Below, piece by piece: positions 520 to 23,095 of a stretch of DNA of 64,000 nucleotides (position 1 is the stretch's first letter; each line of letters opens with the position of its first letter). Below the pieces are notes generated by a model. That model was not told the DNA's origin, made no database searches, and saw only the letters and a list, made by a program, of their open reading frames with translations. Position numbers and translations under genes: made by a program. Origin of the DNA: an uncultured Flavobacteriales bacterium (GTDB taxonomy: Bacteria; Bacteroidota; Bacteroidia; Flavobacteriales_D; Sanyastnellaceae); NCBI GenBank assembly GCA_965658045.1, contig CBFHQO010000024.1:15134-79133 (forward strand), written 5' to 3'.

Positions 520-1753
520 AGCGGCAGCTCAGCATCGCCGTGTCGTCCAACCGTGGGGTTTCACCCCTGAACGCCTCGAGCGCGCCGACAATTTGCCCAT
601 GTACGTCCTCGAGGGCTTGGCCTTCATGTCCCTTCAGCAACGACGCCAAACGCTCCGTTCCAAACGGCACTTCTACCGCGTCTTCCTGTTCCACGAGTCC
701 GTCGGTGTAGCAGCACAGCACGGAGCCTGCCGTCACTGGAACTTGCCCTTCCTCCACGCTGGGGATGTCGCGGAACATGCCCAAGCCCACAGACCCCAGT
801 CCGAGCAACTCGTGGCGCCCCCCAGGATGAAGGAACAGCGGGGGATTGTGGCCGCAGTTGACGTAGTCCAAGCGGTCGCCTTCGGCGTTGAGTTTGGCCA
901 CGAAAAACGTGATGTACTTCTCTCCGCGTGCGATGTCCATGACGCGGCGGTTCAAGACATGAAGCGTGTCCGTGAGGGTGCCTGTGTGGGCGCGGAACAA
1001 CGCCCGGACCTGCGCTTGAAAATTGCTCATCAGCAGGGCCGCACTCATGCCCTTGCCACTCACATCGGCCATGCAAATGACCGTCTCGTTCGACTCCGTG
1101 ACGAAGGCGTCGTAACAATCGCCACCCACTTCGGTGTGGGGCTGGTAATGCCCCGCCACGTCCAAGTCAATGTGGTCCCAGCACTCGGGCAACAGCATCG
1201 CCTGCATCTCGCCCGCGAGCTCCAACTCCCGCCGGAGCGCCTCCTGCTCCAGGTTCCGGCGGTTCATTTGACGGTTGCGTCGCGCCACCACCAAGATGTT
1301 GGTCAGCGTCACGAGGAAATTCAAGTGTTTCACCACAGGACTGACGCCCCGCGAATCCGAGGTGTCCCCTGCCAGCACCACCGCAATGGCCTCGTCGTGT
1401 TGGTGAATGGGCACCACCACGTCAGAGGGGTGCTGGTCCGCGTCCATGGCGCCTGCCAACCCAATGCCATCCAAGTCCAAGGACTCGAAAAAGGCAGAAG
1501 GTCTGGAAGCCGGCCACGCAGAGTCGGTGCCTTCAGACACGAGCAAGGACCAGCGCTCGCCGTCCAAATCTGCGGCGTACAACACAAGGCGATCGATGCC
1601 GAGGTTTTCCTTCAACGCCCCCACATACTGGGACATCAACTCGGCCTCGGACGTCTCGCTGTTGATGGCTTGGGTGACCTGAAGCAACGCATTCAACTTG
1701 AAGTCTCGCAATTCGAGCTTCTCCTTGAGGCGGCGTTCCTTCCCGTGGGTCAT
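512..1753 (-). CDS. SpoIIE/PP2C-family serine phosphatase with GAF-like N-terminal sensor domain
   Basis: The C-terminal half carries PP2C/SpoIIE motifs (GGDCYDAF, MADVSGKGMSAALLMS, CGHNPPL, YTDGLVE). The N-terminal half is GAF-like. ATG 1753 avoids overlap with efp; the track start 1792 is the alternative. Confidence 0.8.
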   Translation of the reverse strand: MTHGKERRLKEKLELRDFKLNALLQVTQAINSETSEAELMSQYVGALKENLGIDRLVLYAADLDGERWSLLVSEGTDSAWPASRPSAFFESLDLDGIGLAGAMDADQHPSDVVVPIHQHDEAIAVVLAGDTSDSRGVSPVVKHLNFLVTLTNILVVARRNRQMNRRNLEQEALRRELELAGEMQAMLLPECWDHIDLDVAGHYQPHTEVGGDCYDAFVTESNETVICMADVSGKGMSAALLMSNFQAQVRALFRAHTGTLTDTLHVLNRRVMDIARGEKYITFFVAKLNAEGDRLDYVNCGHNPPLFLHPGGRHELLGLGSVGLGMFRDIPSVEEGQVPVTAGSVLCCYTDGLVEQEDAVEVPFGTERLASLLKGHEGQALEDVHGQIVGALEAFRGETPRLDDTAMLSCRFR

Positions 1754-1763
1754 CCCCTCGAGC

Positions 1764-2330
1764 TCACTTTTTGATGCGCTCCGTGTAATCACCGCTGCGC
1801 GTGTCCACTTTGATCCAATCGCCTTTGTTGATGAACAAGGGCACCCGCACTTCAGCTCCTGTGTCCACCGTGGCGGGCTTGAGCGAGTTGGTGGCGGTGT
1901 CTCCTTTCACGCCAGGCTCGGTGTAGGTGATCTCCAACTCCACATGGCTCGGCAAGTCGCAGCTGATGGGGCGTTCCTCCTCGGCGTGGAAGACCACCAA
2001 GCAGTTCAATCCGTCTTTCAAGAATTGCGGGGCGCTGATCAAATGCTTTTCCAACCGGACCTGCTCGTAGGTCTCGGTGTTCATGAAGTGGTAGCCCTCG
2101 TCGTCGTTGTACAAAAACGTGTGCTCCCGGGTCTCGATGCGCACAGGGTCGATTTTGTGCCCGGCGTTGAAGGTGTTGTCCACCACTTTGCCGGTCTCGA
2201 TGTTCTTCAACTTGGTGCGAACAAAGGCCGCGCCCTTGCCAGGTTTGACGTGCAAAAACTCCACAATTTGCCACAACCCGTTGTTGTGGTTGAGGACCAT
2301 GCCGTTCTTGATGTCGCTGGTGTTTGCCAT
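1764..2330 (-). CDS. efp: translation elongation factor P
   Basis: 188-aa translation MANTSDIKNGMVLNHNNGLWQIVEFLHVKPGKGAAFVRTKLKN... is full-length EF-P. The start is an internal ATG of track ORF 1764..2498. Confidence 0.97.
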   Translation of the reverse strand: MANTSDIKNGMVLNHNNGLWQIVEFLHVKPGKGAAFVRTKLKNIETGKVVDNTFNAGHKIDPVRIETREHTFLYNDDEGYHFMNTETYEQVRLEKHLISAPQFLKDGLNCLVVFHAEEERPISCDLPSHVELEITYTEPGVKGDTATNSLKPATVDTGAEVRVPLFINKGDWIKVDTRSGDYTERIKK

Positions 2331-2367
2331 GTCTGTAGGTTCGTGAAGGCCAAGATAGGACAGCCCT

Positions 2368-4431
2368 TCACGCTTCCCACGACAATCGAAGCGCGCAACG
2401 AAAGGCGACTTGTTGAGAAGGTGCACAGGAGGCATGGACCGACCAAGTTCGATTTCCTTCTCTGTCGTTCCATGCCGCCCAAAGAGAAGCGCGCGCACCC
2501 TGCGCTGGAGTTTGCATCCACGTCATCCTGTCTGCCCACGGCAAGACCGCGCGTTGCGTGGCCCCTCCTTGGACGCCCTCCATCCACAACATCCCCAGCC
2601 TTGCGCGCCTTGGCCCCTCCAGCCTGTAGGTCATCTTCACTTGCCTCGCCAAAGCCCATCCCTCGCTGGAGCGGTGGACCGTCATCTTGACTTGACCCCT
2701 TTCGCGCTGGTGCCGCACCCCACATTCAGCTTCATCCTCGCCTGCGGTGAAGGCCAAGCGCCATCCAGGCTTGGGGCGCACCCTTGCTTCCAGCATGGCC
2801 GTTCTGTTGTCCACAGACAACCTCATCTGAAAGGGCACACCCCCCTGCCTGGGGCGGCAGGCCATGCTGTACAACGTGGCAAATTGAGAAGCCTCGGGCT
2901 CGTGAAACACCCATCGGCCCCGGCCTGTCGCTTGAAGCAACCAAGCGTCCCCCCAAGCCCGTCGGACAGAGGCGTGGCCCAGGACCGCCCGGTCTGGCCA
3001 AACCATGGCCAAGGCCCATTTGAACGTGGTGAGGCCCCACCACAAACGCCCCCGAAGCACCCAGCTTCTGGGTTCCTGTGGACATCCATCCTTCAAGGTC
3101 GAGCCACACGTCTGGTTCTTGTTGTGATCTGGCCAATGCCGCCACATGACTGGGTCCAATGGACGCCCCAAACGTGCGATCACCCAGGAACCACTCGCCC
3201 GCCAAACCACGCATCAGGCCGTGATGTCCCGTTTGCATGGACGGCGTCAACCGGCCCGGAGCCGGCAATCCCGGGTCGCCCACATGCCACTCCGTTCCGA
3301 AAGTCCGACCTCTCGGAATCGTCAGGCCTTGCCCCCATGCTGCGCTGTGGTCTCCAAGCGTCCAGTGCAAATCTCCACGACGGCCCCAAAGCGATCCAGC
3401 CCAAGTCGTGGGGTGGTCCGTGGTGCATGTCCATTTGGCCCGCGACGTCTTCCCCCTCCAAACGCCCATGCCTTCAGGCGTCAAGGATTGCGCGGACCAG
3501 GACCGTTGAATCACCCAGGAATGCTTGCTCGGGCTTGGGCGTTGTGCCGCACTTGCCACTTGCTCCATCGCCCACCGTCGTCACCAAGGTTGTCTTTCAA
3601 GCCAACGCTGCGTGGCCGCGTCCAGGCCTTCGACACGCCTGGCCGTTTCAACAGCCCAAGGCTTGCCGTGAAGCTCGACATGCCTCGCTACCGCCTCGGC
3701 CGCAGCCCAGCTGCAATGGCCCTGTTCCGCCGCCCGACTCAAGGTGCGCAGCACCTCCACCGCCACGTCGCACGACCATTCTGAAAGACCCTTTTGGGCC
3801 ACTGCAACCACGAAGGACGTGACCTGAATCCCCATCAAGACCGCCGCCTTGATCGCAGCCCTCCATGTCATTCTTCCCATCGCCAAGCCAGGTGATGAAA
3901 CGCCACAACACCGCGCTGTCCGCGGACCACACGCCACCCATGCCGCCTCGAGTTCACACGTCCCAACCGCGTCAAGGACTTGGATGTCTCCTCTGGGAGC
4001 GAGCCCGTGACGAGAGCTGGGGACCAAGACCACCCCACTTCAGCCACCCACCTCGGGCCTCCAAGCAAGACCTGGAATCCCCGACTCCAACGACGCCACA
4101 AACGCAGGTCATCCATCCAGTTTGGATCGGGATTCCACCGAACGCCCCACTGTCCTTCCTGAGACCACATCAACTCCGGACACCCCAATAAACCCGCTGG
4201 GTTGGGAGGCTGCCACGAGGCAGACCATGTCCATGGACCCTGAAAGGCCCCGCGCGCGGTCCATCCCACCACCGCTGCAAATATCCCCGACCCTTCCACC
4301 ACATGGCTGAACCGGGCCTCGGCAGAGGCCCAAGCGTCTACCTGCCGCAACTGCGGCCATCGGTCGACCCCGACCTGGACGAGCACGTCCAAGGAGAGCC
4401 CCCCGACGACTTTGTGCTGGCCTCCACTCAC
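2368..4431 (-). pseudogene. possible multiply frameshifted relic of a ~700-codon minus-strand gene (family unknown); could instead be non-coding or foreign DNA
   Basis: Minus-strand ORFs 3868..4431, 3581..4033, 2732..3568 and 2368..3210 tile the region in two frames. Two of them are separated only by one in-frame TGA. Codon-position composition is weak and the best frame changes along the region. No family is recognisable. Confidence 0.25.
2630..2694 (-). repeat. 14-nt near-identical direct repeat GTCATCTT[C/G]ACTTG, 51 nt apart
   Basis: Copies lie at 2630..2643 and 2681..2694. In the minus frame of ORF 2368..3210 both encode QVKMT, and the single difference is a synonymous Val codon (GTG/GTC). 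Confidence 0.6.
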
Positions 4432-4717
4432 GCTGTGTTGCTGCCATGCTGCCTAGCCTTGGTGATGCATCCCGGCAACCCACTGGGCACCAGGCATGTT
4501 GCGTCCGAACCGCGCGTCCATCCCAAACCAAGGGGCCCCCGCCACATGCTGATGGATGGCAATCTCCCCCCATTGGGAACGAAGGTCAGACGCCTGGGCG
4601 CAAGCCACGACCGCAGGAATCCACATGGCCGCAACCCAATCTCAACGACTTCACAACGCAAACAAATCATCCGCAAAGCCGCTGAAAGCGACCGGGTTGA
4701 CAAACGCAGCACATGGC

Positions 4718-4747
4718 TTGGCCTGCGAGAAAAACGACCTACCTTTG
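4718..4747 (+). promoter_or_regulatory. Bacteroidota-type promoter for tRNA-Leu (-33 TTG / -7 TAnnTTTG)
   Basis: TTG at 4718..4720, a 19-nt spacer, then TACCTTTG at 4740..4747. This is an exact match to the TAnnTTTG -7 consensus and ends 15 nt before the mature tRNA 5' end. Confidence 0.5.
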
Positions 4748-4762
4748 CGGCCCTTGAAAGAC

Positions 4763-4842
4763 GCGGGTGTGGTGAAATTGGTAGACACGCCAGACTTAGG
4801 ATCTGGTGCTTCGGCGTGGGGGTTCGAGTCCCTCCACCCGCA
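4763..4842 (+). tRNA. tRNA-Leu (anticodon UAG), class II with long variable arm
   Basis: Folded by hand. Acceptor GCGGGTG/CACCCGC plus discriminator A; anticodon stem CCAGA/TCTGG with loop CTTAGGA; long variable arm; T-arm GGGGG-TTCGAGT-CCCTC. No encoded CCA. Confidence 0.95.
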
Positions 4843-4880
4843 CACTTTCAGGAAACCATAAGGCAACCAGAATTTCCGCC

Positions 4881-6236
4881 ATGAACATTGCACAAACTGC
4901 ACTCGACGACCTCCGCATCGAATTGGCCGTCACCCTGACTTCAGACGACTACACCCCACGAGTTGATCGCGCGTTGAAGCGTCACCAACAGCAAGCCCAA
5001 ATGCCTGGCTTCCGCAAAGGGAAAGTGCCCATGCAGCTCATTCGTCGTCAATACGGCCAGTCCGTGTTGGCCGAGGAGTTGAACCAGATGCTCAGCGAAC
5101 AGCTTCAAAACCACATCCAGGAAAACAAGCTGAACGTCCTCGGCAACCCCATCCCAAGTGAGAAGACAGAGGACACTGGAGATTGGAACAACCCTGGCGA
5201 TTTCACCTTCAACTACGAAGTGGGTCTCGCGCCAGAGTTGAGCCTGGAGTTTGGGAAAAGTGCCAAGTTCACCCGCCACAAAATCAAAGTGGACAAGGCC
5301 GCCATTGAGCGCCAGGTCACAGACCTGCAACGCCGCCACGGCAAGATGACCGACCCCGACAAATCGGAGGCCAACGACATGCTCGTCGGCGCCTTTGCGC
5401 AACTCGACAGCGACGGCAACGTGTTGGAAGGCGGCATTGCCAGCGACAGCACCATCAGCGTGGAGTTTGTGGAAGACAAGAAGACCAAGAAAGCCCTTGT
5501 GGGAATCGAACCAGGTTCGACCGTGGACGTCGACCCGCACAAAGTGAGCCGTGGGCATGACGATTTGGGCCGCATGTTGGGCATCAGCCACGAGCAAGTC
5601 CACGACCTCCAAGGGAACTTCCGGTTCACCGTGAAAGAGGTGAAGCGCCTCGAGCCCCACGACATCAACCAGTCGCTGTTCGACAAAATCTACGGCGAAG
5701 GCGTCGTCACCGACGAGAAGGCTTTCCGCGAGCGCGTGGCCGAGGACCTCGACGGGCACTTTGACCGCGACGCAGAATGGGTGTTTCGACGCCGCTTTGT
5801 GGTCGACCTGCTTGAAAAAATCGACGTCAAGCTTCCCGACGCTTTCTTGAAACGCTGGATTGCGTTGACCAACGAAAAGCCCCTCACGCCTGAGCAGCTC
5901 GAGGAGGAGTACCCTGGTTACGCCGAGTCGTTGCGCTGGCAAATTCTCCAGCAGACCGTGGCCCAGGCCATCGACCTCAAGGTGGACGCCGCTGAACTCG
6001 AGGCCGAGGCCAAGCGTCAAGTGGGTGCCCAGTACGCGCAATATGGCATGCCCATGGACGAGGAAACCCTCGGCAACGTGGCCAAAAACGTCCTCAACGA
6101 CGAAAACGAGCGCCGCCGCATCGCGGACGTGCTCGTCGAGCGGAAGGTGGTCGACGACCTCAAGACGCGCGTCAAGATTTCAGAGAAGTTGGTGAGCTTC
6201 GACGAGTTCGGAAAGCTCGCCGCAGAGGTGCGTTGA
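4881..6236 (+). CDS. tig: trigger factor
   Basis: Translation MNIAQTALDDLRIELAVTLTSDDYTPRVDRALKRHQQQAQMPGFRKGKVPMQLIRRQYG... shows the trigger-factor N-terminal signature. The tig-clpP-clpX order is conserved. Confidence 0.95.
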   Translation: MNIAQTALDDLRIELAVTLTSDDYTPRVDRALKRHQQQAQMPGFRKGKVPMQLIRRQYGQSVLAEELNQMLSEQLQNHIQENKLNVLGNPIPSEKTEDTGDWNNPGDFTFNYEVGLAPELSLEFGKSAKFTRHKIKVDKAAIERQVTDLQRRHGKMTDPDKSEANDMLVGAFAQLDSDGNVLEGGIASDSTISVEFVEDKKTKKALVGIEPGSTVDVDPHKVSRGHDDLGRMLGISHEQVHDLQGNFRFTVKEVKRLEPHDINQSLFDKIYGEGVVTDEKAFRERVAEDLDGHFDRDAEWVFRRRFVVDLLEKIDVKLPDAFLKRWIALTNEKPLTPEQLEEEYPGYAESLRWQILQQTVAQAIDLKVDAAELEAEAKRQVGAQYAQYGMPMDEETLGNVAKNVLNDENERRRIADVLVERKVVDDLKTRVKISEKLVSFDEFGKLAAEVR

Positions 6237-6323: not shown

Positions 6324-7016
6324 ATGAACAACCGCAAAGAATTCCTGAAGTATGCCGTGGGACACCATGGCATGAGCAGCCACACTGTCGAAGACTACAT
6401 TTCAGCCACCCACGGACCTGTTTCGGGGCCTGAAAGCATGACCCGCACCGTGATTGAAGAGCGCCCCATGCCCTTTCGCGAGGTGGACGTCTTCTCGCGC
6501 TTGATGGCCGACCGCATCATCTTCCTCGGCACCGGGGTGGACGACTACATCGCCAACATCATTCAAGCCCAGTTGCTCTTCTTGGAATCGACCGACCCCG
6601 GGAAGGACATCCAGATCTACATCAACTCTCCCGGCGGAAGTGTGTACGCGGGATTGGGCATCTACGACACCATGCAGTACATCCGTCCTGACGTGGCGAC
6701 CATTTGCACCGGCATGGCGGCGTCCATGGGTGCCGTGCTTTTGTGTGGCGGGGCCGCAGGCAAGCGCACAGGACTCAAGCACAGCCGGGTCATGATCCAC
6801 CAGCCCCTTGGAGGTGCACGAGGCCAAGCTTCCGACATTGAAATCACGGCGCGCGAAATCCAAAAGCTCAAGAAAGAGCTCTACGACATCATCGCCCAGC
6901 ACAGCGGTCAGACCTACGACAAGGTGTGGGAGGACAGCGACCGAGACTATTGGATGATCGCCGAGGAAGCCAAGGAATACGGCATGATCGACGAGGTCCT
7001 GGTTCGTCCCAGCTGA
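6324..7016 (+). CDS. clpP: ATP-dependent Clp protease proteolytic subunit
   Basis: Motifs [20 protein letters not shown] and [15 protein letters not shown] (catalytic Ser), plus IHQPLGG. The ATG at 6324 is preferred over the TTG at 6303. Confidence 0.95.
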
Positions 7017-7019
7017 TTC

Positions 7020-8240
7020 ATGGCAGACAAAGACCTCCAATGCTCGTTCTGCGGACGCCCCAAGGCGGACGTGGACATTCTGATTGCTGGAGCCACAGGC
7101 CACATCTGCGAACGCTGTGTGGACCAGGCTCAGGCCATCGTGGCGGAAGAAGGTGGCACCCAAGCTTCGGCACAATCTTCCATCGACTTCACCCTGCGCA
7201 GACCAGCTGAAATCAAGGCCCACCTCGACGAGTTTGTGATTGGTCAGGACGCCGCCAAGCGCACGTTGAGCGTCGCGGTGTACAACCACTACAAGCGTCT
7301 GACCCACGAACATGCCGGCGGTGATTCGGGCATTGAGTTGGACAAGAGCAACGTCATCTTGGTGGGCGAAACAGGCACGGGAAAGACACTTCTGGCCAAG
7401 ACCATCGCACGCATGTTGGACGTGCCCTTCTGCATCGCCGACGCCACCGTGTTGACGGAGGCAGGCTATGTGGGGGAGGACGTGGAAAGCGTGCTGTCGC
7501 GGCTCTTGCAAGCGGCCGACTACGACGTGGAGGCCGCCGAGCGAGGCATCGTCTTCATCGACGAGATTGACAAAATTGCCCGGAAGAGCGACAACCCCTC
7601 CATCACCCGCGACGTGAGTGGCGAGGGTGTCCAACAAGCGTTGCTGAAACTGCTGGAAGGCACTGACGTGCAGGTCCCGCCCCAAGGCGGCCGAAAGCAC
7701 CCCGAACAGAAGCTCATCACCGTGAACACCGCGAACATCTTGTTTGTCTGCGGCGGGGCATTTGCCGGGATGGAAAAAATCGTCGCCCGCCGGTTGCGTC
7801 AAAGCACCATTGGCTACGCCAACCAAGGCATGACGGTGGAGGACTCTGAAGCGCTGGCTTACGTGGATCCCTCGGACCTTCGGGCCTTTGGATTGATTCC
7901 GGAATTGATCGGCCGATTCCCCGTGCTGACGGCCTTGCGGCCCCTCAAGCGGGATGCCTTGCGACGCATCCTGACCGAGCCCAAAAACGCCCTCGTGCGC
8001 CAGTACGTGCACATTTTTGCCATGGACGACATCAAGCTCAGCTTCGACAGCGGCGCCCTCGATTTGATTGTGGACCACGCCGTGGAACGCAAGCTTGGGG
8101 CACGTGGCCTTCGGGGCATTTGTGAGGTGATTTTGCGCAACGCGATGTTTGACCTTCCAGGGAGCGACACCAAGACCTTGAAAGTCACGGCGAAATACGC
8201 CCAATCCCAGCTGGACGCGCAACACCAACAAGCTTCTTGA
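7020..8240 (+). CDS. clpX: ATP-dependent Clp protease ATP-binding subunit ClpX
   Basis: N-terminal zinc ribbon CSFCGR...CERC, Walker A GETGTGKT, and the [10 protein letters not shown] Walker B. Confidence 0.97.
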
Positions 8241-8242
8241 CC

Positions 8243-8704
8243 ATGCTCCGAATCTGCGTTCCCTCCTTCCTTCTTGCATGCAGCATGATGACTGCGTGTT
8301 CCGAATCCCAACCCACGGCTGGGACCGACAACCACGTCGTTTCTGAGGAAGTCACCCGTGCAATCATGGAAGACGTGGACGCAGCCCAATTCCAACGGTT
8401 GATTGCCGAATTGGATGGGGCCCTCTTGCTCGACGTGCGGACGCCAGAAGAATGGGCGGAAGGACACCTTGCTGGGGCAGCGCACAGAGATTATTGGGGC
8501 GACGACGACTTCGACGTGGCCATGAACAGCATCCCCCGAGACAGGCCTGTGTTGGTGTACTGTGCGGGTGGGGGCAGGAGCGGTCTGACCGCCCAAGAGT
8601 TGAACAAAGCAGGACACCTCGAAGTGTACAACCTCGAAGACGGCATCTCCGGTTGGCAAGACGCAGGACTTCCCGTCACGACCGGACCAGCTGTCGACTT
8701 CTGA
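8243..8704 (+). CDS. rhodanese-domain lipoprotein
   Basis: Lipoprotein-type signal MLRICVPSFLLACSMMTAC followed by a rhodanese fold with the active-site loop VLVYCAGGGRS. The ATG at 8243 is 3 nt after the clpX stop. Confidence 0.8.
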   Translation: MLRICVPSFLLACSMMTACSESQPTAGTDNHVVSEEVTRAIMEDVDAAQFQRLIAELDGALLLDVRTPEEWAEGHLAGAAHRDYWGDDDFDVAMNSIPRDRPVLVYCAGGGRSGLTAQELNKAGHLEVYNLEDGISGWQDAGLPVTTGPAVDF

Positions 8705-20403: not shown

Positions 20404-21744
20404 ATGGAGAGTGAACCTTTGTTGAGCGCTTGGGCTGAACATGGCTGGTCGATGTTGACCGTGTTCGTCCTCCTCGTGCTGTCGGCCCTGGTGTCCGGGT
20501 CTGAAGTGGCGTTTTTCAATTTGTCGCCGCAAGCGCTGCACGACCTTGAACAAGATGACAACCCCAGGTCCCAAAAAGTCCTGGACCTCATGCGTTCCCC
20601 CAACAACGTGGACGGACCGCGCAACCTGCTGGGCACCATCCTGGTGATCAACAACCTGGTGAACGTCTCCATCGTCTTGATCGCGACGGTCTTGGCGGAA
20701 CAATTGTTTCCAAGCGACGCGATGCCGCTGTGGCTCGGCACGTTGATCCACGTGGTGGGTGTCACCTTTTTGTTGGTGCTCTTTGGAGAGGTCATCCCCA
20801 AGATTTACGCCACGTCGTTTGGCGTGGATTTGGCCAAACTCATGGCCGCTCCCCTCTTGCTCTCTCAACAAGTGCTCCGCCCCATTTGGAATCCCTTGGT
20901 CAGCATGGGGCGTTGGATGGACAACAAACTCGCCAACCCTGCCGCAGACATCAGCGTGGAAGACCTCGAGCAGGCGTTGGAATTGACCGACAACGCGGAG
21001 CGGTCGGAAGAAGAGCAACGCATTCTGGAAGGCATCGTGAACTTCGGCTCCAAGGACGCCAAACAGGTCATGACCCCAAGGACGGACATGCTGTCGTTCA
21101 GCATTGACGACACGTGGGAACACGTTAGGGCCACCATCGTCGCTTCCGGGTTCAGCCGCATCCCAGTCCACGGAGGCTCCGTCGACCAAATCCAAGGGGT
21201 GTTGCACGTGAAAGACCTGTTGCCTCGGCTCCAAGACGATGCCGTGGCGTGGACGGAAGTCCTGCGCGCCCCGATGTACATCCCGGAGAGCAAGAAAATC
21301 GACGACCTCTTGAGGGAGTTTCAAGAAAAGAAAATCCACCTCGCCGTCGTGGTTGACGAGTATGGGGGCACCAGCGGCCTCGTGACGTTGGAGGATGTCC
21401 TGGAAGAAATTGTGGGAGAGATCGCCGACGAGTTCGACGAGGAAGACATCACCCACTCCGTGCTGGACGAATTCACCTATTTGATGGAGGCCAAAACGCC
21501 GTTGCTTGACGCGTACCGCATCTTGCAACTTGACGAAGAGGTGTGGGAAGCGGCCAAAGGCGAAAGCGACACCCTCGGCGGGTTCATGCTGGAACAAGCC
21601 GGCCGCATGCTGAAGCGCGGCGAGTCCATTGAATTCGCAGGCACGGTGTTGCACGTCGACGCCCGCGACGCCCGGCGCATCCACCGCATCAAAGTGGTCT
21701 TGTCCCCTTCCTCCGACGAGCCAACCTCAGATTCTGAAGCGTGA
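20404..21744 (+). CDS. gldE: gliding motility protein GldE (CNNM/DUF21 + CBS pair + CorC_HlyC)
   Basis: DUF21 membrane domain, CBS pair and CorC/HlyC C-terminal domain. It lies immediately upstream of a GldD-like gene and downstream of mutY-ssb, as in Flavobacterium johnsoniae. Confidence 0.85.
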   Translation: MESEPLLSAWAEHGWSMLTVFVLLVLSALVSGSEVAFFNLSPQALHDLEQDDNPRSQKVLDLMRSPNNVDGPRNLLGTILVINNLVNVSIVLIATVLAEQLFPSDAMPLWLGTLIHVVGVTFLLVLFGEVIPKIYATSFGVDLAKLMAAPLLLSQQVLRPIWNPLVSMGRWMDNKLANPAADISVEDLEQALELTDNAERSEEEQRILEGIVNFGSKDAKQVMTPRTDMLSFSIDDTWEHVRATIVASGFSRIPVHGGSVDQIQGVLHVKDLLPRLQDDAVAWTEVLRAPMYIPESKKIDDLLREFQEKKIHLAVVVDEYGGTSGLVTLEDVLEEIVGEIADEFDEEDITHSVLDEFTYLMEAKTPLLDAYRILQLDEEVWEAAKGESDTLGGFMLEQAGRMLKRGESIEFAGTVLHVDARDARRIHRIKVVLSPSSDEPTSDSEA

Positions 21745-22328
21745 AGACACGACCGAAAATTTGGCCCTGGCTTGTGGCAATGGCGATCGTGGTCGCCGCT
21801 GGGCTTTGGTGGATCAAACCTGAACATGTCGGAGTGCCCAGGCCTTTTGGACACATCCGAATTGCCCTCCCCGACACGGCCACTTCCTCCTACACGACGC
21901 CTTGTGGGGGCCAATTCCGCATCCCCAACCACGCCAAGGTGGAGCTGAGAAACCTGCCGGAGGAGGACGGTTGCTGGTTCAATGTATCCTTCCCGAGGTT
22001 CAACGCGAAACTCCATTGCACCGAAGTGCCTGTCACCGATTTGGGGGCCTTGTTGAACGACGCCCAGTCGCTGGTGTTTGGCCATGAGGTGGCCGCCACC
22101 GGCATCCGACGTCAGGCCTTGGACCTCCCTTCCAAAAGTGGCATGCTCTACGCGTTGGAAGGACCGGTGGCCACCCCCCTGCAATTCTTCGTGACCGACA
22201 GCGTCGACCATTTCATGCGGGGTTCGCTGTATTTCAGCCACAAGCCCAACCCAGACAGCGTGGCGCCTGTCCTTCAGCGCCTCGAGACCGACGTTCGCAT
22301 CATGATGGAAAGCATGCAATGGCCATGA
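21741..22328 (+). CDS. gldD: gliding motility protein GldD
   Basis: 195 aa with an N-terminal anchor. The GTGA overlap with the gldE stop and the gldE-gldD order are conserved. The translation (FGHIRIALPD...NVSFPRFNAKLHCTEV...LYFSHKPNPDSVAPV) resembles the GldD family; this is from memory and not searched. Confidence 0.75.
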   Translation: MKTRPKIWPWLVAMAIVVAAGLWWIKPEHVGVPRPFGHIRIALPDTATSSYTTPCGGQFRIPNHAKVELRNLPEEDGCWFNVSFPRFNAKLHCTEVPVTDLGALLNDAQSLVFGHEVAATGIRRQALDLPSKSGMLYALEGPVATPLQFFVTDSVDHFMRGSLYFSHKPNPDSVAPVLQRLETDVRIMMESMQWP

Positions 22329-23095
22329 GCACTTGGATTCTTGAAGTGGGCAACTCCCGGGCCAAATGGGCGCAATTTTCCGCCGAGGCGTCCCCCCACG
22401 ACGATCCGCTCTCTGTGCAGGTGTTCCCCCTTGAGGGAGCCCTGCCCGACTCCTCCGCAAAAGCCTGGACCCAGGACATCGCCACGGGAGACCACGTGGT
22501 GGTCACCGGATCCGGCAATTTGGACCCTTGGGTCGAGACGCTTCGCCCCACCAGGGTGTTTCGCCCCGGCGACGCCGTCCCCCTTCTCACAAACGTGACG
22601 GAACCTGGCAAGCTGGGGCTGGACCGTGTTGCGAACGCCTGGGCCGTGGCCTCAGGCTGCGTGCCCGAGGCTGACCCGTCCATGTCTTGGTTGGTGGTGG
22701 ATGCTGGCACGTGCGTGACCGTGGACCTTGTGTGCGGGGGACGTCACATGGGCGGTTCCATCGCGCCAGGCATTCGAATGAGGCTTGACGCCATGCACGC
22801 GCACACGCATGCGCTTCCTTGGGTCCAGGACCCCGTGTCGGCGATGGGCGACGTACCCATCGTGGGAACCAACACCAAGGAGGCCATGGTCTCAGGGGCC
22901 TTTCACAGCCTCGGCGCCGAGTTGACGGGAATGTGGATGCGCTTGAGGGACGAGTTCCCAAATCTTGGCATCATTCTGACCGGCGGAGACGCCCAGCACT
23001 TGCAACTCCGTGCGGTCTCCCCGAGATTCGCGGACGCAAATTTGACCCTGAAGGGCCACCATGCATTGCACAAACACCTCCATGACACGCACTGA
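22319..23095 (+). CDS. coaX: type III pantothenate kinase
   Basis: ILEVGNSRAKW, VVDAGTCVTVD, GGSIAPGIRMRLDAM, VGTNTKEAMVSG and ILTGGDA are CoaX motifs. The alternative ATG 22325 gives an ATGA overlap with gldD. Confidence 0.9.
   Translation: MAMSTWILEVGNSRAKWAQFSAEASPHDDPLSVQVFPLEGALPDSSAKAWTQDIATGDHVVVTGSGNLDPWVETLRPTRVFRPGDAVPLLTNVTEPGKLGLDRVANAWAVASGCVPEADPSMSWLVVDAGTCVTVDLVCGGRHMGGSIAPGIRMRLDAMHAHTHALPWVQDPVSAMGDVPIVGTNTKEAMVSGAFHSLGAELTGMWMRLRDEFPNLGIILTGGDAQHLQLRAVSPRFADANLTLKGHHALHKHLHDTH

Follow-up and report, generated by a model that had tools for sequence, protein, structure and literature searches.

What occupies the interval between efp and a tRNA-Leu gene in the genome of an uncultured Flavobacteriales bacterium (assembly GCA_965658045.1, contig CBFHQO010000024.1)? 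In the 64,000 nucleotides (nt) of this contig that were analysed, referred to below as the window, roughly 2.3 kb next to efp carry no recognisable gene and show weak codon periodicity. This description was given by an initial annotation made from the sequence alone, and it was borne out by guanine plus cytosine (GC) content by codon phase, by Pfam and by Rfam. The minus strand of window positions 2368-4654 is very likely a recently inactivated operon of two genes, here called A and B in the order of transcription, lying upstream of efp. Four mutations abolish both reading frames in the window, while both frames are intact in four sister genomes. The two genes and the four lesions, the latter defined against all four sister genomes, are as follows.

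Positions 3868..4654, minus strand: pseudogene A, with a 263-codon ancestor, GTG start at 4654-4652, TGA stop at 3870-3868, a signal peptide and 9-11% tryptophan (Trp).
Positions 2368..3871, minus strand: pseudogene B, with a 500-codon ancestor, ATG start at 3871-3869 and TGA stop at 2370-2368.
Positions 4634..4635, minus strand: lesion 1, a 5-nt deletion in A, seen as a gap in the window only when it is aligned with the four relatives.
Positions 4453..4455, minus strand: lesion 2, a TGG to TAG nonsense change in A (plus strand cta, against cca in the relatives).
Positions 3581..3583, minus strand: lesion 3, a TGG to TGA nonsense change in B that hits Trp97, a residue invariant across the family.
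Positions 3018..3019, minus strand: lesion 4, one additional nucleotide in B (window cccatttg, relatives ccc-cttg), with an adjoining substitution.

The coding origin of the interval is established by comparison with close relatives, a check that the initial annotation had proposed. Relatives were gathered through the neighbouring efp protein, which gave 80 related loci in genome assemblies; the close ones all come from uncultured marine Flavobacteriales, some of them labelled Crocinitomicaceae. Four of these loci contain the 2.4-kb interval in full, at 93% (L003), 92% (L001), 76% (L065) and 75% (L002) identity, and the minus strand carries two uninterrupted open reading frames (ORFs) of 263 and 500 codons in 4/4 of them. 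Intact conserved ORFs at this locus, which the initial annotation had regarded as the mark of an ordinary gene, are thus found in the relatives, whereas in the window the same genes are broken. Intact A (263 amino acids; MKSLRLGWV..MWIPAVVACAQA...HHLAWRWEE*) occurs in the four sister genomes and as P0131-P0137, and intact B (500 amino acids) in the same four genomes and as P0001. Of all intact alleles in the protein collection, P0131 lies closest to the A protein reconstructed from the window (95% identity) and P0001 to the reconstructed B (94%). The ATG of B overlaps the TGA of A as ATGA (window 3871-3868), and in most homologs B starts on, or a few bases from, the stop of A. TGA is the conserved genuine stop codon of both genes in all relatives. 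The intact pair is translationally coupled by the ATGA overlap, and each product begins with a cleavable signal peptide.

The manner in which the interval has diverged is that of protein-coding DNA. Variable columns occur 2-5 fold more often at one codon phase than at the other two, and this phase fits the minus-strand frames only, as their third position. At 75% identity, the coding alignment of A and B contains three indels: the 5-nt deletion and the +1 of the window, and one 3-nt indel among the relatives. In the relatives, A and B are under real yet weak purifying selection: the ratio of nonsynonymous to synonymous substitution rates (dN/dS) ranges over 0.18-0.29 in A and 0.20-0.26 in B, apart from the pair formed by the window and L003 (0.45), compared with 0.01-0.07 for efp and tig (0.15 in one pair). 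The synonymous rate itself is also unusual, since dS between the two sub-clades reaches 0.8-0.95 in A and B against 0.29-0.52 in efp and tig, a difference of about 2-fold; this could reflect weaker codon-usage constraint, a locally raised mutation rate, or recombination with distant alleles.

These observations bear directly on whether the interval is a long structured or regulatory non-coding RNA, an option that the initial annotation had kept, or plain spacer DNA. Weak compositional periodicity and a strong strand skew favour such a reading. It is excluded in practice, with a probability close to nil, because both ORFs are intact in four relatives, change is codon-periodic and dN/dS shows constraint; at 75% identity the coding part holds one 1-nt and one 3-nt indel, and no Rfam family matches it at E<=1.

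The four lesions affect the two genes in different ways. Because of lesion 1, the start codon of A and the signal-peptide n-region no longer share a frame with the remainder of the gene, and lesion 2 falls on a Trp that is nearly invariant in family A. Lesion 4 moves the frame of B from that of ORF 2732..3568 to that of ORF 2368..3210 and is the sole 1-nt indel of the window against all four relatives. Over 12.3 kb of alignment with L001 and L003, the window shows two gap openings, both inside the A/B region. Changes unique to the window comprise 39 nonsynonymous and 28 synonymous substitutions, against 52 and 76 on the two sister branches together (Fisher p=0.024), and they strike the invariant residues W97 and W482, the latter replaced by Cys. 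With a dN/dS of about 0.25 in the relatives, the value on the window branch is about twice as high. The window copy is very probably a young pseudogene pair, and its DNA may now be drifting.

An alternative explanation is that the lesions are errors of sequencing, assembly or binning consensus and that the genes are intact in the organism. The window is apparently metagenome-assembled, and two other contigs, L083 and L084, do have artefactual frameshifts at this locus and in its flanks. Three further points weigh against gene decay: lesion 4 (3018/3019) has no independent confirmation, because it lies outside the one other assembly that supports the remaining lesions; that assembly may share its sample with the window; and the nonsynonymous excess on the window branch is modestly significant only. 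The assembly in question is the Logan contig L081 (1441 bp, run ERR15116859), which is 100% identical to window 3351-4791 and contains lesions 1-3. Two of the lesions are substitutions rather than homopolymer indels, no further indel separates the window from L001 and L003 in 12.3 kb, and the nonsynonymous excess includes invariant Trp residues. Independent deletions in relatives, described below, indicate that the locus is genuinely disappearing. Error as the source of the lesions is consequently considered unlikely.

L083 and L084 deserve separate mention. Both are long-read ENA 'contig_*_pilon' contigs in which flanking genes appear in two pieces each (tig, the SpoIIE-domain phosphatase gene and a glycosyltransferase gene); the frameshifts of these contigs result from faulty assembly, also where they fall in A and B (P0008, P0018). 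A case for widespread decay built on the frameshifted database proteins P0008-P0018 was discounted, as the flanking genes of L083 and L084 are broken as well. Protein databases contain several such chimeric "proteins" of the A/B family.

The broken genes might also still be expressed, through read-through or programmed frameshifting, or as split proteins. Both premature stops sit at Trp codons and large ORF fragments remain open, which would suit recoding. This is a far-fetched explanation, since TGA serves as the genuine conserved stop of A and B in all relatives, the 5-nt deletion strips A of its export signal, and a beta-barrel would be unable to assemble from fragments lacking a signal peptide. 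In addition, dN/dS is raised on the window branch, and no slippery or repeat tract is present at 3018.

Inactivation of a gene pair accounts for the pattern of reading frames noted initially. All seven ORFs listed at that stage are present at their coordinates, and the mosaic of best-fitting frames, tallied by hand, largely holds in the form of three segments: ORF 2368..3210 gives the frame for 2371-3018, ORFs 2732..3568/3581..4033 that for 3019-3871, and ORF 3868..4431 that for 3868-4654. No support was found for assigning 4201-4260 to ORF 4109..4573; this ORF and the plus-strand ORFs of the region are spurious open frames of GC-rich DNA. The mosaic results from the four lesions together with the natural change of frame between A and B at 3870. 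The proposal of a multiply frameshifted relic of one minus-strand gene of about 700 codons was therefore right in recognising a disrupted minus-strand coding relic, which in fact comprises two genes (263 + 500 codons). Its "multiply frameshifted" part needs correction: at about 3870 the frame changes naturally, because A gives way to B there (ATGA, conserved in the relatives), and inside the genes just one frame change, the +1 at 3018/3019, is a genuine frameshift, alongside the 5-nt deletion and the two TGG to stop changes. Elsewhere in the window, antisense shadow ORFs of 366-625 codons at 593..1774 (plus), 4941..6041 (minus) and 6402..8279 (minus) face the SpoIIE-domain gene, tig and clpP-clpX, with inverted GC1/GC3 profiles (GC at the first and third codon positions), and exemplify how readily spurious open frames arise in a GC-rich genome.

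If the interval is coding, its non-coding appearance requires explanation. In blocks of 300 nt, the span of GC between codon phases is 0.07-0.20 across 2401-4800, against 0.29-0.49 in blocks inside the flanking genes. The plus strand is C-rich throughout the region (GC skew -0.14 to -0.30), and no other part of the window runs as long as 2523-4799 without a normally periodic ORF of 200 codons or more. The runner-up, 21742-23051, consists of two ordinary short genes (21741..22328, 195 amino acids; 22319..23095, 258 amino acids), so that the window holds no second gene-free gap. Nine ORF translations of the region gave no Pfam match at E<=1. An Rfam search, also among the checks proposed initially, was run with Rfam 15 covariance models over 1500-5500 and returned at E<=1 only the tRNA-Leu at 4763-4843. 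With its ORFs, its flat GC by phase, the empty searches and its rank as the longest aperiodic stretch all confirmed, the region was described accurately, and its peculiarity exceeds chance fluctuation.

This odd composition is a property of the family and not a product of decay. Intact orthologs have GC at codon positions 1, 2 and 3 of about.63/.60/.67, against about.52-.65/.33-.34/.77-.82 in efp and tig; because the intact genes are as flat as the broken ones, the flat periodicity does not come from decay. Trp makes up 7-11% of A and B in genomes of 55-61% GC, compared with a mean of 1.3% and a maximum of 4.8% among the genes of the window. Both proteins are also rich in Gly, Ala and Arg and nearly free of Tyr, Lys, Asn and Ile. 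The abundance of Trp, Gly, Ala and Arg pushes GC up at the second codon position and thereby flattens the periodicity.

The origin of the high Trp content is suggested by homologs from genomes of 43-61% GC, in which the sum of Phe, Tyr and Trp stays at about 8-16% while the share of Trp climbs with the GC content of the locus (r=0.84 for B, r=0.75 for A). On the simplest reading, GC pressure has pushed weakly constrained aromatic positions of beta-strands from Phe and Tyr, whose codons are AT-rich, to Trp (TGG). The aromatic positions of A and B would accept any aromatic residue, with Phe and Tyr replaced by Trp at 55-61% GC. This shift from Phe and Tyr to Trp would also explain why the coding strand is G-rich and its antisense translation rich in Pro (CCA).

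Beyond the sister genomes, the history of the locus is one of inheritance with repeated loss. The features that frame the pair in the window are the following.

Positions 4655..4762, no strand: intergenic spacer separating two divergent genes, A (minus, from its ancestral start) and tRNA-Leu (plus), near-identical in L001, L003, L065 and L002.
Positions 4763-4843, plus strand: tRNA-Leu, matched by Rfam.
Positions 2331..2445, minus strand: efp-proximal conserved segment, comprising the last 25 codons of B, its stop and a 37-nt spacer before efp.

In many relatives, tblastn and profile searches place homologs of A and B, at 24-32% identity, in the same slot from tRNA-Leu/tig to efp, in genomes where identity is 79-87% for tig and 88-96% for efp. 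Immediately upstream of efp, a B homolog is still present in loci whose efp identity is as low as 72%. In L034-L056, which belong to more distant Flavobacteriales, the interval between tig and efp measures 4.1-4.4 kb, about 1.5 kb longer, and a B homolog still adjoins efp; the A profile gave no match in this interval, which must hold other genes or a very divergent A. Three loci carry unexpected titles: L010 and L016 (efp 92-95% identical) are titled 'uncultured Comamonadaceae', although L010 has the same tig/A/B/efp synteny, and L021 is titled 'Methanobacteriota archaeon'. All three look like mis-binned or mislabelled contigs of metagenome-assembled genomes.

The pair has been lost or damaged independently in several relatives, and the locus is dispensable. 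In L060, whose efp is 99% identical, window positions 2445-4416 are missing through a 1.97-kb deletion, so that 97 codons remain at the start of A and 24 at the end of B. Because the junction lies at a shared CCGAC microhomology and both gene ends persist, L060 represents a deletion and not an empty site. L082 has clean flanks around a shrunken, gap-ridden pair and is counted as real decay. A stop interrupts A in L013, internal deletions of about 1.1 kb are present in L006 and L017, only fragments persist in L021, and nothing is left between tig and efp in L020, L022 and L030.

The same distribution is relevant to recent foreign acquisition with alien codon usage, for example as an islet beside the tRNA-Leu gene, which the initial annotation had considered in the form of a foreign gene set. 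Such an origin would agree with GC values by codon position that are atypical for the genome, with the adjoining tRNA gene, and with the fact that the close relative L060, as well as L020, L022 and L030, lacks the region. It has very little probability, as the pair keeps its synteny throughout the clade and has been inherited vertically. The same slot is occupied over 72-99% efp identity, with divergence in step with that of the host loci, so that the pair is fast-evolving rather than foreign, and both outer ends of the pair, 5' in A and 3' in B, survive in L060. The composition is accounted for by amino-acid content. Searches of the region against PHROGs and PADLOC gave zero matches, no integrase-like ORF was found there in the ORF list or by Pfam, and a repeat search revealed neither terminal nor tandem repeats pointing to a mobile element or to phase variation.

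One part of the locus escapes this general loss. The 115 nt of 2331-2445 are kept in every derivative, L060 included, and are the sole part that blastn detects in the distant relatives L004-L019 and L032. DNA identity of the segment is 76-93% in genomes where the rest of B falls below 30% amino-acid identity, and the segment encodes a block, SPSQQETFRCALRWRWEA, that is better conserved than any other in the B alignment. It probably serves both as the terminal beta-strand of B and as the promoter or leader of efp, and this overlap may be the reason why the 3' end of the pair has been kept. By eye, a TAtcTTgG box stands about 25 nt upstream of the efp ATG and is similar to the Bacteroidota -7 motif TAnnTTTG. 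A sigma-70 scan found no site, with a model that does not cover Bacteroidota promoters, and a terminator scan gave fewer candidates than expected from shuffled sequence.

What did the two genes encode? The A/B family is small, unannotated, fast-evolving and confined to marine Flavobacteriales. Word-indexed protein searches with B and A returned unnamed proteins only, devoid of Pfam domains. A hidden Markov model search with a 27-sequence B profile against 1.84 billion cluster representatives gave 87 matches at E<=0.001. Among ten orthologs and ten remote relatives, Pfam produced two sub-threshold matches only, both to domains of unknown function (E 0.015 and 0.088), and remote B relatives of normal composition likewise have no Pfam match. 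NCBIfam gave scattered single-member matches in 18 B homologs (best E 0.0034), none of them common to the members. A profile search of PDB sequences with whole B found no credible relative, and a literature search on Trp-rich outer-membrane proteins of flavobacteria yielded nothing relevant. According to hhalign, A and B are not homologous to each other.

The products are exported proteins, probably of the outer membrane. Signal peptides were read by eye, with no predictor score, in most homologs of A and B; those of B show a basic n-region, a hydrophobic core and an A-x-A or AQ cleavage site in most of 18 homologs. An AlphaFold2 (AF2) model of P0001, built from the 27-sequence profile alignment, has a mean predicted local distance difference test (pLDDT) score of 77, with mostly 80-92 in the barrel part. 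It consists of a signal helix, five short helices (residues 38-110, a domain of about 75 residues) and about 24 beta-strands (116-499). The most conserved motif of the family, GDHxxxWGxGLTIPRxxxFG, forms a low-confidence loop between strands 5 and 6 of the model. In a Foldseek comparison with the PDB at E<=0.001, 12/12 matches were transmembrane beta-barrels, among them the ushers PapC and FimD, FecA, VDAC and a subunit of mitochondrial SAM-Mdm10; E was 4e-5 for PapC and 1e-4 for FecA, and LptD (1e-3) fell just above the cut-off. The last strand of B, FRCALRWRWEA, alternates as expected and has an aromatic residue at position -3. On the basis of this model, B is very probably an outer-membrane beta-barrel.

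Several points count against this functional assignment. The Foldseek template modelling (TM) scores are low (0.15-0.37), so that only the fold class of B is supported. Classical beta-signals end in a terminal aromatic residue. The B chain ends in W-E-A or W-E-P and has no such residue. The model of A is unusable (pLDDT 35). The function of both proteins is inferred throughout, and the family has no named or characterised member.

Within these bounds, intact B would combine a barrel of about 24 strands, which carries a highly conserved loop inserted after strand 5, with a small helical domain in the periplasm; A would be its beta-rich exported partner, and the two together would form a dispensable cell-surface or channel structure. 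The predicted architecture of B, with signal peptide, N-domain and about 24 strands, resembles that of the ushers PapC and FimD, of TonB-dependent transporters such as FecA, and of LptD, in which a soluble or plug domain accompanies a large barrel. The conserved insert between early strands may be compared with the usher plug, located between beta6 and beta7. B differs from these proteins in showing no sequence similarity to them in Pfam, NCBIfam or PDB sequences, and it is much smaller than ushers and TonB-dependent transporters. Its locus lacks a chaperone, a pilin, a TonB box and an LptE-like partner, and the partner it does have, A, is beta-rich, 250-310 amino acids long and unrelated.

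Two more specific assignments of B were rejected. Identity as a PapC/FimD usher is contradicted by the lack of a match to the Usher family of Pfam, by the neighbours A, efp and tRNA-Leu, and by TM-scores of 0.21-0.37 to usher chains, where more than 0.5 had been set as the criterion. The motif A-x-x-I-x-x-H-x-x-x-x-G-x-P-x-x-x-E-E-A-x-x-I-x-G-L of the N-domain was likened to the ComEA pattern, A..I...R...G.F....L..V.GIG. A ComEA-type HhH_3 domain was not supported on testing: no HhH family of Pfam matches at E<=1, and a profile of the N-domain finds no HhH protein among PDB sequences, its best match there being a weak one to a Myb repeat.

The region is very probably a decaying gene pair of an uncharacterised family, not a new kind of element. 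It resembles other bacterial pseudogenes of dispensable surface proteins in having intact orthologs in sister genomes, several independent lesions, raised dN/dS and parallel deletions, and differs from them only in that the parent family is unannotated and compositionally extreme. For these two reasons the relic was invisible to the eye, and the non-coding look of the interval stems from extreme composition, absence from family databases and a few fresh mutations. For annotation, the lesson is that a conserved gene pair can mimic 2.3 kb of non-coding DNA and that comparative alignment resolves the matter. Current understanding is not overturned, and the window copy is simply dying.

For the family, conservation beside efp combined with repeated loss is what is typically seen for a surface structure that is exposed and useful only under certain conditions. 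The pair also offers a clean example of GC pressure turning Phe and Tyr into Trp at a constant total of aromatic residues. A more ambitious interpretation, put forward tentatively and with the odds somewhat against it, is that A and B form a previously undescribed two-protein outer-membrane module of marine Flavobacteriales, composed of a roughly 24-stranded barrel whose lumenal or plug-like loop is strictly conserved, a small periplasmic helical domain and a translationally coupled beta-rich partner, and genetically tied to efp. If this is true, the fast evolution, doubled synonymous rate and repeated loss would reflect an exposed role at the cell surface, as a target of phages or grazers or as an uptake channel, and the 7-11% Trp would represent a natural experiment in GC-driven aromatic replacement in membrane barrels.

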